The notes: generated by a model from the sequence alone, not told the origin. Counted from the first letter of the stretch, positions 46,147 to 50,661 are shown. The stretch: 64,000 nt of DNA from Gammaproteobacteria bacterium (GCA_021774255.1 JAJFJF010000009.1:1658-65657); one strand, 5' to 3'. Numbers and translations are program-made.

Positions 46147-46530
46147 TAGGGGCGCCAAAGGTCGCCCGCCCTGTCAGATATCAACCAACATAGTGCAACG
46201 AGGGGGAGCGCCTTCCACCAATCGTTAAAGCTTACTTTCTTTAATAAGCAAATTTAACATAATGTTTTTCGAGATATGGGTACCTATAACAATTTATAAT
46301 CAGCCCTATCTAGATTAAGGTGTTGTCTGATGAGAGGAACCAAAGGTCTTCCCCAGAGGTGGCTTACCAAGCAACATACAAAGGCAGCGCCGTGACTTTC
46401 CTTAATGCTGACAAGATTTATCATATTCATGATTTTTTTGTCTAGAACAGCAAAAAAATAAAATTTATTTATACTTTAAAATCAATCAATTACGTGTTTC
46501 TCCCCTGTTTGCCGGCTTGTTATTAGTGAT

Positions 46531-46570
46531 TTAATTAACTTACATTCGGATGTTACACCATATATAAAGA
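46531..46570 (+). promoter_or_regulatory. Cassette A promoter-like module (CTTAC-N8-GTTAC, TTACAT-N17-TATAAA)
   Basis: TTAATTAACTTACATTCGGATGTTACACCATATATAAAGA is conserved with 48331-48366 and 49581-49618. It reads as sigma70 -35/-10 with 17-nt spacing and lies 71 nt upstream of the ATG. Confidence 0.6.
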
Positions 46571-46631
46571 GTAAGTACAAGAAACGTAGCGTGCTCACTG
46601 AACAAAACAACAACCAAGCAACAGTAAGATC

Positions 46632-47822
46632 ATGCCTGAGCAGGATGTGAGAGTTATAATGAAGCATGTCTCGGACCTGTTCGGGAGCCTCCCGGAGCCC
46701 AAGCCGCTTGCGGCTTGGGTGAACGCCTCGCTCCAGCTGACCCTTGATGCTCTCGAGCAGGCGGGTTTCCTGTACACCGGCATCGACTTTGATGGCGAGC
46801 CCCTCTTCGAGTCTACCTACGCGGTGAATGAGAAGGGGTTTGACCACCTGGCCAGCCGCTTCCAAGGGATCACCCAGATGAGCGCGCTCGCCGGACTCTA
46901 CCTGGTCTTTCGGGCGCCTCGCCTCAACGAAGATGGTTGGTGTGTGCCTGGGAGGTACACTGCCTGCAAGGTCTTTGGACCTTGCATGGCCGACTCCTTC
47001 CAGATGGACCAACGGACCCCTTTCGAGGTGGTCGTCTCTCTCAAGCAGGAGGTGACCGAGCCCGAGGCGGACCACCAGGCCAACCTGACTGCCTCCACCC
47101 ACGACCACGAGGAGTGGAACAAGTCTCCCAGTCGCCAGAGCGGCACGGGCGCCAAGGACTACTCCTGGAGCCCCCAGGTCTCTCCCATCCGCGCTCCCTT
47201 TCAGGGGGACGAGGAGGATGACGAGGATGACGATGCGCCGATCTCTCAGGATTGGCGTACGCTCTTGGACGAGGAGCTGATGGTCAGCCTCTCTCCGTCT
47301 GCTCCTGCGTTCTCCGAGGACGACATGTCCACCGTCTCTTCCGCCTCTTCTGAGGGGGAGGAGATCCTCTGGACTGGCCGCGCCCTGCGGGACGCCGTCG
47401 CCACCGTCTACACGGAGAAGACAACGCAGTGGGTCCAGCGTGTTGCCAGCCTCGGTGAGCAACCCGACCAGGATGCCGTCGCCGCCGTCTATCACGAGTC
47501 TGCGCAGATGTGGACCAGGTGTGCTGCTGCCATGCAGGGGGAGGACGACACCCTGTTCTCCGACGCCGACGCCGACGAAGTTCTCTACTATGACGACTTC
47601 GAGGACGAGGACGAGGTGCAGGACGCTCGGGAGGCCGCGATCTGGGAGGCTGCTCTGCGCGATCCGGAGGAGGCCCAGGCCGAGCTGTTCGGGCAGGCGC
47701 GTGCTCCCAAGGGAGACAGCCTCTACGGCGCGCAGTGTGGCCGTCGGGCCCACGCTCGCCGTGGTGGCTACTGCCACAACGCCGGGTTCAGCCGCCACCA
47801 GGGTCTGTCGGCTATCTATTAA
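46632..47822 (+). CDS. Cassette A ORF: 396-aa acidic, GC3-rich hypothetical protein
   Basis: Uninterrupted ORF with strong G/C preference at third codon positions in this frame. It is bracketed by the conserved leader and trailer. Has DEEDDEDDD and DDFEDEDE acidic tracts. No family recognised. Confidence 0.6.
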   Translation: MPEQDVRVIMKHVSDLFGSLPEPKPLAAWVNASLQLTLDALEQAGFLYTGIDFDGEPLFESTYAVNEKGFDHLASRFQGITQMSALAGLYLVFRAPRLNEDGWCVPGRYTACKVFGPCMADSFQMDQRTPFEVVVSLKQEVTEPEADHQANLTASTHDHEEWNKSPSRQSGTGAKDYSWSPQVSPIRAPFQGDEEDDEDDDAPISQDWRTLLDEELMVSLSPSAPAFSEDDMSTVSSASSEGEEILWTGRALRDAVATVYTEKTTQWVQRVASLGEQPDQDAVAAVYHESAQMWTRCAAAMQGEDDTLFSDADADEVLYYDDFEDEDEVQDAREAAIWEAALRDPEEAQAELFGQARAPKGDSLYGAQCGRRAHARRGGYCHNAGFSRHQGLSAIY

Positions 47823-48056
47823 AAAACAAAAGCTTTGTGCACTTCACTGGAGGCTGATACTAAAAAGCAGGTGAAGCGTGATTTTTTTCTTTTTTTCAAA
47901 AAACGAAAAATTCCCAAAAAAAGCAAAAAAACACAAAAAGACAAAAAAAATAAAAAAACCAAAAAAAACCAAAAAAAAAACCCAAACAAACAAAGTAAAT
48001 TTTTGAAGTTTATTTTGTTGTTTGGGTTTTTTTCTTAAGACTTAAGGAGTCAGGCA
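47823..48056 (+). repeat. Cassette trailer copy A (hairpin+T-run, ~100-nt A-rich tract, long AT hairpin+T7, CTTAAG..GTCAGGCA end)
   Basis: Near-identical by eye to 50428-50661. The distal ~150 bp is shared with 49190-49342. Confidence 0.9.
47981..48033 (+). terminator. Intrinsic-terminator-like hairpin plus T7 at the end of trailer A
   Basis: CCCAAACAAACAAAGTAAA / TTTATTTTGTTGTTTGGG arms (one wobble, one bulge), followed by TTTTTTT. Confidence 0.6.
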
Positions 48057-48330
48057 TATCTAATAAATCTAAAGGGGGATGTTTTAATGTAAGTGTTCAC
48101 AGAGAGATCTTTGCTGCCTTTTATGATCGATAAACCACCTATTAAGGAGTGCCAAAGGTCGCTCTATCAGATAAAGGGGCGGCATGAAAAACGCTTAAGG
48201 AAGACTAGAGTTTCTTAGGAATATCTGATTTTCTGCTAATAGATAAAAAAGATGAGATTTATTTTTTTATTAAATATCAGTAGGTTAAAGTCGTTTTGGT
48301 TGAATCTCTGTCCCAGAGATCCGTTTTTTT

Positions 48331-48366
48331 GTAACTTACCTGCGGGTGTTACGCCATATATAAGAC
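48331..48366 (+). promoter_or_regulatory. Cassette B promoter-like module
   Basis: GTAACTTACCTGCGGGTGTTACGCCATATATAAGAC has the same half-site spacing and TATA-like element. It lies 70 nt upstream of the ATG. Confidence 0.6.
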
Positions 48367-49104: not shown

Positions 49105-49342
49105 TCAGCTCAAATGTTCTTGAGGAGTAGCTCTATAACAAGAAAATTTTTTCTTTTTTTTAAAGCAAAAAACCCCAAAAATACAAAAAAATCAAAAAAA
49201 GCTGAAAAGCAAAAAAACACAAAAAGACAAAAAAAATAAAAAAACCAAAAAAAACCAAAAAAAAAACCCAAACAAACAAAGTAAATTTTGAAAGTTTATT
49301 TTGTTGTTTGGGTTTTTTTCTTAAAGGTTTAAGGGTCAGGCA
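49105..49342 (+). repeat. Cassette trailer copy B (proximal part diverged, distal part conserved)
   Basis: The distal GCAAAAAAACACAAAAAGACAAAAAAAATAAAAAAACC...GGGTTTTTTTCTTAA block matches trailers A and C. Confidence 0.85.
49267..49319 (+). terminator. Intrinsic-terminator-like hairpin plus T7 at the end of trailer B
   Basis: Same hairpin and T-run as 47981-48033. Confidence 0.6.
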
Positions 49343-49580
49343 CCGCTTTCTATTTTTTTGGAATGATGTCTCCATCAATTAATTAAAGTGCTCAACGTAA
49401 CCGTTTTCACAGGGCTTGCTATAAATGCTTGCAAAACCCATGCAGGGGCACGTCATGCCCCGCCTCTACAAAATGTGTCAAAATCCCATTTCTCTGGCAG
49501 GAGAGAATAAGTTATTGATTGTTTTAAAACCAATCAGATATCATTATTTTCCTTGTTTTTTTGTTTTTATCAATGATTTA

Positions 49581-49618
49581 GTTAACTTACATGTTGGTGT
49601 TACACCATATATAAAGAG
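49581..49618 (+). promoter_or_regulatory. Cassette C promoter-like module
   Basis: GTTAACTTACATGTTGGTGTTACACCATATATAAAGAG. The downstream leader is closely similar to leader A. Confidence 0.6.
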
Positions 49619-49686
49619 CAAGTACAAAAAACGTAGCGCGCTCACTCAACAAGACAACAAGCAAGCAGCCAAGCAACAGCAAGATC

Positions 49687-50427
49687 ATGTCTACCTATTG
49701 TAAGGCGTCTCCTTGCGGGGGAAGCCACGGCGCGTTGATGAAGCTGATGCAGGTGGCTACTACGGCTGATCCGGTTCCTCTCGTGGAGCCGCTGATCGAG
49801 TACAAGTGCCAGAAGGGGAAGAACCTCTTCTTCTTTGGCCCGTTGGCCCTGGTGGCTAAGCTCCTTGATCTCGAGATCAAGGAGGTTCAGTCGACACTCA
49901 ACCCGGACACCGTGAGCACCGCTATCGGTTGCCTGACAGCGCGGTACATCGCCCAGATCCCAGCGCCGGAGCAGGCGCTGCTCTCCCGGATGGCCGATGT
50001 CTATCGGCGGGCATCGACGCTTGAGCTCCTCATTGAGCTCAAGAGCTTCCTGCGCGTCTTTGAGAAGCTGGGGTTTATGTTCTTTGAGCAGGACGGTGTG
50101 TTCGCCTTCCAGCATCGCATAAAGGTGAAGCACCCGAGTGAGGATAACGGGCGGGACTTCAACAAGTTCCTCGCCTTCTACCGGACCCAGACTAAGGGCA
50201 CCTTCCTTGAGGGCGTAGAGGTCGAGCTCCGGGGGCAGTTCACCAACGGCGAGATCATTTGCGCCAGGTTTTATGAGCTCCTCATTGAAAAGCAGAGCAA
50301 GCAGTACTTCGATGACACGAACACTCCTCAGAGTGATGGCGCAGAGCTTACGCACGCCATGGAGGGAGGCGACGACATGGTCAACTTTTTCCACACCACC
50401 CGCCGCTCTGAGCAGGCTGCTGTCTAA
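49687..50427 (+). CDS. Cassette C ORF: 246-aa GC3-rich hypothetical protein
   Basis: Uninterrupted ORF with G/C-rich third positions. Bracketed by the conserved leader and trailer. No family recognised. Confidence 0.6.
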   Translation: MSTYCKASPCGGSHGALMKLMQVATTADPVPLVEPLIEYKCQKGKNLFFFGPLALVAKLLDLEIKEVQSTLNPDTVSTAIGCLTARYIAQIPAPEQALLSRMADVYRRASTLELLIELKSFLRVFEKLGFMFFEQDGVFAFQHRIKVKHPSEDNGRDFNKFLAFYRTQTKGTFLEGVEVELRGQFTNGEIICARFYELLIEKQSKQYFDDTNTPQSDGAELTHAMEGGDDMVNFFHTTRRSEQAAV

Positions 50428-50661
50428 ACAACAAAAACTTTGCCCACTTCACTGGAGGCTGATACTAAAAAGCAGGTGAAGCGTGATTTTTTTCTTTTTT
50501 TCAAAAAACGAAAAATTCCCAAAAAAAGCAAAAAAACACAAAAAGATAAAAAAAATAAAAAAACCAAAAAAAAACAAAAAAAAAGCCCAAACAAACAAAG
50601 TAAATTTTGAAAGTTTATTTTGTTGTTTGGGTTTTTTTCTTAACGCCTAAAGGGTCGGGCA
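50428..50661 (+). repeat. Cassette trailer copy C
   Basis: Near-identical by eye to 47823-48056. Confidence 0.9.
50586..50638 (+). terminator. Intrinsic-terminator-like hairpin plus T7 at the end of trailer C
   Basis: Same hairpin and T-run as in trailers A and B. Faces the convergent antiporter gene. Confidence 0.6.

Follow-up and report, generated by a model that had tools for sequence, protein, structure and literature searches.

Phage morons are autonomous units that have their own promoter and factor-independent terminator, a deviant composition and, often, host-interaction cargo. In the vlp/vsp-type families of Mycoplasma, as well as in the minimal mobile elements of Neisseria, conserved flanks surround variable coding content, and homologous recombination acts through the flanks. 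Effector regulons, such as those of the hrp box (HrpL, Pseudomonas syringae) and the PmrA box (Legionella, Coxiella), are defined by a shared promoter box. Here we describe an array of three head-to-tail gene units located downstream of rplQ in a 64,000-nt stretch of DNA from a gammaproteobacterium (GCA_021774255.1, JAJFJF010000009.1:1658-65657), called below the window; all genome-side scans covered this one 64-kb window. Each unit has a promoter-like module, an A/C-rich leader, a single open reading frame (ORF) and an A-rich trailer of ~240 nt.

We favor the reading that the three units of the array are insulated units of bacterial expression, belong to one host-interaction regulon and each carry a recently acquired orphan gene. 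We would give this reading a probability of roughly 0.45. The promoter and terminator roles of the units are predictions made from the nucleotide sequence.

The array is bounded by the rplQ stop codon (46146) and the stop codon of a convergent Kef-type antiporter gene (50702). An initial annotation, made from the sequence alone, had described three tandem four-part units in this interval, and every part was recovered in its place (Table 1). We found that the identity of the flanks among the units varied from 63 to 93%. The upstream regions of units A and C were 76% identical over 179 nt, compared to 63% over 202 nt for units A and B. The similarity between A and C extended to the ATG and then resumed at the TAA stop codon. 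The spacers between a trailer and the next promoter motif were weakly homologous and made the least conserved part of the units outside the ORFs. By these alignments whole units, and not flanks alone, are homologous outside the ORFs. Leaders A and C were as closely alike as had been annotated, and unit B indeed shared the promoter core and the distal part of the trailer. Trailers A and C, which had been called near-identical, were alike from end to end, though with 93.5% identity over 246 nt.

Table 1. Coordinates of the features of the array, of the other motif sites and of minor elements of the window (positions are counted from the first nucleotide of the window).
Feature	Position	Strand	Description
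Spacer S1	46147-46535	+	rplQ stop to promoter-like motif A; 30-45% GC; weakly homologous to S2 and S3
Promoter/operator-like motif A	46536-46570	+	TTAC-N7-TGTTA-NN-CYATAT, then AGA
Leader A	46571-46631	+	A/C-rich; no Shine-Dalgarno sequence; no upstream ATG
ORF A	46632-47822	+	396 aa; GC 64%; GC3 0.79; orphan
Trailer A	47823-48057	+	two hairpins, phased A-tracts, conserved end GTCAGGCAT
Trailer A, small hairpin and T-run	47839-47896		
Trailer A, A-tracts	47898-47985		
Trailer A, 28-bp A/U hairpin, then T7	47971-48045		
Spacer S2	48058-48331	+	
Promoter/operator-like motif B	48332-48366	+	
Leader B	48367-48426	+	51% A, 28% C; no Shine-Dalgarno sequence
ORF B	48427-49104	+	225 aa; seven 87-nt repeats; GC3 0.88
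Trailer B	49105-49343	+	proximal ~75 nt unique; distal ~165 nt (49178-49342) 88-90% identical to A and C
Spacer S3	49344-49582	+	
Promoter/operator-like motif C	49583-49618	+	
Leader C	49619-49686	+	87% identical to leader A; 8-nt CAAG/CAGC-type insertion
ORF C	49687-50427	+	246 aa; orphan; predicted alpha/beta; GC3 0.77
Trailer C	50428-50662	+	ends 40 nt before the convergent antiporter stop
Motif	4275-4298	+	71 nt upstream of RING-finger ORF 4346-6073
Motif, 1 mismatch	12524-12547	-	upstream of PF03407 ORF 11344-12465 (minus strand)
Motif	12553-12576	+	upstream of 951-aa ORF 12639-15494; back to back with the site at 12524-12547
Motif, 1 mismatch	61253-61276	+	138 nt upstream of the ORF starting at 61391
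Phe-rich ORFs in the T-rich trailer strand	47819-47989, 49110-49271, 50424-50594	-	
GC-rich spacer hairpins	46150-46167, 46335-46352, 48146-48164, 49445-49461		

The three ORFs showed no detectable homology to one another, as had been judged by eye. The best E-value in pairwise BLASTP comparisons was 2.6 (A versus C), and that of A versus B was 47. We also observed that the ORFs are compositionally foreign. Their GC content at the third codon position (GC3) was 0.77-0.88 compared to about 0.45 (range 0.41-0.56) in the core genes of the window. AAG made 98% of lysine codons, GAG made 90% of glutamate codons, and A-ending codons were almost absent. The coding strand of the flanks was strongly enriched in A. 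Since GC3 exceeded the GC content at the first and second positions (GC1 and GC2) on the plus strand, the plus-strand frames are identified as the coding ones, rather than the long antisense ORFs.

ORF A contains acidic low-complexity stretches; in the gene caller's version it starts at M10 and has 387 aa. ORF B is made of seven 29-aa tandem repeats of the coiled-coil type, rich in E, Q, K and R. These repeats differ mostly at the first codon position (100/58/64 changes), with K/E/Q swaps and the third-position G kept. Searches in Pfam and NCBIfam gave no significant match for any of the three ORFs, with a sub-threshold match of ORF C to KBP_C only. There was no match in PHROGs and PADLOC, and a sequence search of the PDB returned only matches with E > 0.7. 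Among 5.8 billion proteins ORF A matched only itself and ORF C had no homologue; a full phmmer search of ORF C against 1.84 billion representatives found none as well. The homology search that the initial annotation had advised thus left ORFs A and C with neither a family match nor a non-self homologue. Single-sequence AlphaFold2 models of ORFs C and A had a pLDDT of 37 and were unusable.

Homologous surroundings of dissimilar ORFs might come from a local tandem triplication of one gene, with extreme divergence of the coding parts and with flanks conserved or homogenised by gene conversion. Such an origin would account for units that are homologous everywhere outside the ORFs, the weakly conserved spacers included. 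Also, the first-position bias of changes in ORF B suggests fast protein evolution. On the other hand, the spacers, which are presumably little constrained, keep 63-76% identity, while the ORFs have no similarity at all, and coding sequence should not outpace an unconstrained spacer in divergence. The ORFs differ, moreover, in length and in architecture (acidic and disordered in A, 29-aa repeats in B, alpha/beta in C). A tandem array of paralogues would have coding regions with detectable homology, unlike those seen here. We consider a triplication quite improbable. The Mycoplasma and Neisseria systems differ from the array too: their variable parts are paralogues or alleles placed between conserved genes, while ORFs A, B and C are unrelated and their conserved flanks are non-coding and end at start and stop codons.

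Constant flanks around unrelated ORFs had been described as cassette logic. The pattern itself is real, but a dedicated gene-capture system is unproven. In such a system the flanks would serve as a recognition or recombination substrate in an integron-like process with a different chemistry, which inserts foreign ORFs between a promoter-leader and a terminator already in place, and the enzyme would be encoded elsewhere in the genome. The sharp limits of the A/C homology at the ATG and the TAA, the same flanks around three unrelated ORFs and the head-to-tail order would all fit. So would the conservation of the trailer core, which was the most conserved part in all units (88-93% compared to 63-76% in the spacers).

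Like integron cassette arrays and clusters of attC sites lacking integron-integrases (CALINs), the array is a head-to-tail succession of ORFs that are unrelated and often orphan, and a conserved 3' element in the form of an imperfect palindrome comes after each ORF; as in CALINs, no integrase was recognised nearby. However, the attC geometry is absent: a regular expression scan of both strands of 46147-50701 found no pair of R'' (RYYYAAC) and R' (GTTRRRY) sites 50-160 nt apart, and the counts of single sites were at the chance level. The palindrome of the array is a near-perfect 28-bp A/T hairpin which, followed by a T-run, looks like a terminator. Integron cassettes are mostly promoterless and expressed from Pc, whereas each unit described here has its own promoter-like module and leader. 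Also, ~250 nt of less conserved spacer separate a trailer from the next unit.

The absence of attC-like sites and of CRISPR hallmarks, claimed in the initial annotation, was thus borne out. An Rfam scan detected only tRNAs at the gathering threshold, with no CRISPR or other RNA family at the array; permissive miRNA-type matches to the trailer hairpin were spurious. For an integrase the result is narrower: none was recognised among those ORFs of the window that were examined. An integron would have an IntI tyrosine recombinase with attI and Pc beside the array, which a CALIN does not require. The ORF junctions have no direct or inverted repeats, and no border-type direct repeats flank the 46.1-50.7 kb interval besides the internal repeats of the units. 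A BLASTN search of the 4.5-kb array against plasmids and phages gave only low-complexity matches. With a single array known, and with the promoter motif preceding non-cassette genes that have no trailer, we find a dedicated capture platform unlikely.

The promoter motif ties the array to other genes. The 32-nt pattern TAACTTACNTNNNGNTGTTACNCCATATATAA occurred in the window only at 46536, 48332 and 49583, with 0 occurrences expected and no match in shuffled sequences. The conserved promoter/operator-like sequence spans ~45 nt and could be written as TTAC-N7-TGTTA-NN-CYATAT-N4/5-AGA. For a relaxed 24-nt motif, TTACNNNNNNNTGTTANNCYATAT, with at most two mismatches, we found seven sites in the window compared to 0.2 expected; no shuffle reached seven, and a third mismatch added sites at the chance level only. 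An ORF of matching orientation started 71-138 nt downstream of every one of the seven sites, and a further AGA was present a few nucleotides downstream of each site.

The initial annotation had regarded this module as a part of the cassette. It is not specific to the cassettes, since the motif also precedes four other genes of the window, three of which have native composition (GC3 of 0.41-0.43). Because of this composition, we take the motif to be native to the regulatory repertoire of the genome and not imported along with the GC-rich ORFs. Its position in front of other, mostly native genes points to a regulon signal of this genome rather than a mobility feature.

The products of these four genes are secreted, membrane-anchored or eukaryote-like, and ORFs A-C carry the same upstream signal, as the promoter/operator-like sequence is shared. 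The ORF at 4346-6073 (575 aa, GC 57%, GC3 0.62) has a C-terminal RING finger, PF13920 (zf-C3HC4_3), and begins with MGNTESK, a motif of the N-myristoylation type; among 5.8 billion proteins it matched only itself. The product of 11344-12465 is a nucleotide-sugar transferase of the mainly eukaryotic family PF03407 with an N-terminal Golgi-type signal anchor. The ORF 12639-15494 encodes a Cys-rich secreted orphan with a signal peptide. The last two genes form a divergent pair (11344-15494) that shares two back-to-back motifs (12524-12576). The fourth ORF, starting at 61391, runs off the end of the window (at least 869 aa); its product has a He_PIG domain and a GLUG/M26-N-like region, together with a signal peptide and five EPTP repeats (E = 2e-51). 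The first two features, when placed behind a Sec signal peptide, are typical of bacterial surface proteins, so this gene points to use of the motif by the bacterium itself. A related GLUG protein, encoded at 20-1474, has a stalk of mucin-like Ser/Thr/Pro sequence, with a membrane anchor at the C-terminus. This is the layout of a type I membrane protein, unusual for a Gram-negative bacterium.

As judged from its sequence, the motif is not a consensus sigma-70 promoter. For comparison, we read the promoter-like sequence in front of the tRNA-tuf genes as TTGACA-N18-CAGAAT. Sites of sigma-32, sigma-S, the hrp box, PmrA, CpxR, the GacA box, NarL and T7/SP6-type polymerases were ruled out by eye for mismatch in sequence or spacing. 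The effector regulons mentioned above share with the seven genes the general plan, i.e. a box at a fixed distance upstream of scattered, acquired genes for secreted or host-targeted proteins, and the excess of sites over expectation, all placed upstream of ORFs in the matching orientation, is what a shared box would give. Still, the motif differs in sequence from both GGAACC-N16-CCACNNA and the TTAAT direct repeats, and its half-sites are 13 nt apart. All members lack a Shine-Dalgarno (SD) sequence, and three of them share a leader and a trailer in addition.

Leaders A-C are 63-72 nt long, consist of 43-51% A and 22-28% C, have no upstream ATG and fold weakly (-3 to -10 kcal/mol). For all seven motif genes, we compared the duplex energy of the region from -22 to -3 with a generic anti-SD sequence to that of 41 core genes of the window. 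The median was -0.7 kcal/mol for the motif genes compared to -4.5 kcal/mol for the core genes (Mann-Whitney p = 2e-4). The motif was absent from the array neighbors, omp (52497-53108) and a 670-aa ORF, both of which had a perfect AAGGAG.

The 58-nt hairpin core of the trailers was present in the window only at 47981, 49267 and 50586. Trailers A and C open with a small hairpin followed by T7CT7. All three trailers then have A-tracts over ~90-120 nt, with centers ~9.4 nt apart, which would make the DNA curved. Next, every trailer has a 28-bp A/U hairpin (z = -4.2 to -4.5 relative to shuffles), which has CCC/GGG at its base and T7 behind it. In bacterial terms, the trailer may be seen as a double intrinsic terminator; the second hairpin could act bidirectionally, as it stands between an A-run and a T-run. 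A terminator scan tool overlooked the hairpins, since its rules ask for more G-C pairs or a shorter loop. No obvious terminator was seen after rplQ. With only three copies in 64 kb, the trailer is unlike a repeat of the MITE or REP type, which would be dispersed in many copies and have terminal inverted repeats.

Several other elements of the trailers and spacers were considered and set aside. A further occurrence of the trailer end GTCAGGCAT at 11258 was not significant. The minus-strand ORFs of the trailers (53-56 aa, TTG start) are most likely a by-product of composition and not genes of toxin-like peptides; they stay open because the strand is poor in A and hence has few stop codons. The GC-rich spacer hairpins with the CCAAAGGTC loop, two of which have the exact 12-mer GCCAAAGGTCGC in common, were not enriched in the window and were no more stable than shuffles, and were rejected as a signal.

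With a promoter-like module, an ORF of deviant composition and a predicted terminator, a unit of the array resembles a phage moron. Here, unlike in morons, the surroundings are rplQ and the Kef-type antiporter gene with no prophage context (no match in PHROGs), the three units share their flanks, and the promoter is a regulon motif that deviates from the sigma-70 consensus.

The same signals could be read in eukaryotic terms, as if they were aimed at a eukaryotic host to which the bacterium transfers DNA, in the manner of T-DNA, or exports transcripts for translation by host ribosomes. Units A and C have a TATATAAAG box and, ~30 nt downstream of it, a TCA-type initiator. The leaders, with neither an SD sequence nor an upstream AUG, resemble CAA-rich cap-independent enhancers. 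In every trailer AATAAA precedes a GU/U-rich stretch, and the A-rich 3' tail is genome-encoded. Besides, the GC3-rich codon use is unlike that of the bacterium, and some products are of a eukaryotic style, namely the RING protein, with its myristoylation-type start, and the glycosyltransferase, the signal anchor of which is of the Golgi type.

The likeness to the T-DNA genes of Agrobacterium extends to the TATA box, the SD-less leader, the AATAAA-type 3' signal and the codon use unlike the carrier's. However, the 25-bp border repeats are missing, and the window has no recognised transfer genes, such as those for a relaxase or for type IV secretion. The signals could equally be read as bacterial, with the trailer elements as ordinary intrinsic terminators. 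The motif precedes at least one gene of a bacterial-type surface protein, the Sec-dependent protein described above. Three genes of the regulon have only a weaker box, CTATATCT, together with native codon use. To our knowledge, there is no natural precedent outside the Agrobacterium T-DNA, which counts against signals directed at a host, and we judge them very improbable.

A wider version would have the whole seven-gene class, the cassettes especially, built for translation by a eukaryotic host, with the bacterium delivering DNA or transcripts. The CAA-rich leaders would then act as cap-independent enhancers, the A-rich tail, AATAAA and the GU-rich element would replace a poly(A) tail or its signal, and the GC3-rich codons would match the host. 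This version would explain the Golgi-type glycosyltransferase and the RING product of the myristoylation type; even so, we give it hardly any credence.

A eukaryotic host sequence misjoined into a bacterial contig, i.e. an assembly chimera or contaminant, would produce a sharp switch in composition, and such a switch is present: the ORFs have 58-64% GC and the flanks 25-30%, compared to ~47% in the surrounding genome. Yet the block is internal and has intact bacterial genes on both sides, the motif recurs at four other places of the contig beside genes of native composition, and three tandem units are unlike the product of one misjoin. An assembly artifact is therefore extremely improbable.

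The window is a segment of a bacterial chromosome with the tuf-rpoBC-str-S10-spc-alpha gene clusters, uvrA and other core genes. The source gammaproteobacterium is deep-branching; the closest match to its antiporter was 50% identical, and the closest match to RpoA, found in metagenomes, 67%. Exact look-ups of RplQ, RpsK, RpsM, RpsD, ORF C and P0001 returned no recorded match. To characterize the site of the array we used 80 RpoA-anchored loci of distant relatives (L081-L160). In at least 23 of the 80 loci rplQ was followed by a convergent uvrA after a gap of 0.5-6.4 kb. In the window the gap is 9.3 kb (46146-55476) and holds the array, the antiporter gene, omp and the 670-aa ORF. The site downstream of rplQ had been taken as very stable in synteny; with such a range of gap lengths in distant relatives it is not a stable junction. 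The rplQ-uvrA gap is a variable, recurrent insertion site between two convergent transcription units.

Returning to the favored reading of three bacterial expression units, we propose the following. The array occupies the rplQ-uvrA gap, a place tolerant of insertions in this part of Gammaproteobacteria. The seven motif genes would make up one host-interaction regulon, the motif of which, not being a sigma-70 consensus, is probably read by a dedicated activator or an alternative sigma factor. Translation would start independently of an SD sequence, by an S1-type route, from the weakly structured A/C-rich leader, and transcription would end at the two successive hairpin and T-run terminators of the trailer. 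The AT-rich flanks with their phased A-tracts, likely curved, could nucleate silencing of the H-NS type, to be relieved by the activator. The ORFs would have come from an unsequenced GC-rich donor, possibly a eukaryotic host. The weakest step is the origin of the array itself, by duplication of one expression unit or by homologous recombination between its copies. The 165-nt trailer core, as the best-conserved shared segment, would be the likeliest recombination substrate.

Several observations weigh against this reading. The exact halt of the A/C homology at the start and stop codons is not explained by simple duplication and recombination. A sigma-70 scan made no call at the motif sites, where no -10-like hexamer has both A2 and T6, and no regulator, secretion system or recombinase was identified in the 64-kb window. 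The TATATAAAG box, the SD-less leader, AATAAA and the GU/U-rich stretch are readable as eukaryotic signals as well. No relative closer than 67% RpoA identity was found. Finally, the flank search advised in the initial annotation succeeded for the promoter motif, at the four other genes of the window, but not for the trailer core, which was met nowhere else in the window; exact-pattern scans of public collections gave zero matches for both (genome and viral collections for the motif, metagenome and viral collections for the trailer core).

We think that the bacterium is probably host-associated. The eukaryote-type domains (RING, PF03407 and EPTP), along with several broken genes, suggest a host-restricted lifestyle. 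For example, a DUF4143/ATPase-like gene is broken into fragments (2250-2800). A GlnA-like ORF (58669-59793) has no more than 374 aa, and its match covers less than half of the catalytic domain.

Elsewhere in the window, a 46-nt element is present in two copies with 85% identity (1741-1786 and within 60418-61025). The second copy adjoins a duplicated stretch of 49 nt from the 3' end of the SpoU methylase gene. The element and the SpoU duplicate bracket an insert of ~0.5 kb with five iteron-like ATTTCGCCA repeats and a 72-aa ORF. Judging from its layout, the region 60418-61025 has the look of a scar left by integration or of a small mobile element.

The elements of the array each have precedents (morons, promoter-box effector regulons, integron-like arrays). 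A text search of the literature found no published description of their combination, in agreement with the initial annotation, which did not recognise the architecture as a described system. What appears new is that unrelated, un-ameliorated ORFs are connected, at their start and stop codons, to flanks that have a regulon box, an SD-less leader and a composite terminator in common.

Eukaryotic genes obtained by horizontal transfer can be expressed only once they have acquired bacterial regulatory elements, a step for which reviews give no mechanism (PMC7542358). If our reading is true, the locus shows how freshly acquired foreign coding sequence gains bacterial expression signals, the step left open in that review. 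Since three unrelated, un-ameliorated ORFs are already placed between a regulon promoter-leader and a common terminator block, a reusable expression unit is suggested, rather than slow evolution of new signals gene by gene. The finding would gain much in importance if there were a dedicated capture mechanism or if the signals were really addressed to a host. The 24-nt motif and the SD-less leaders also define a candidate regulon, through which host-interaction genes might be catalogued in a lineage without a cultured or sequenced close relative.

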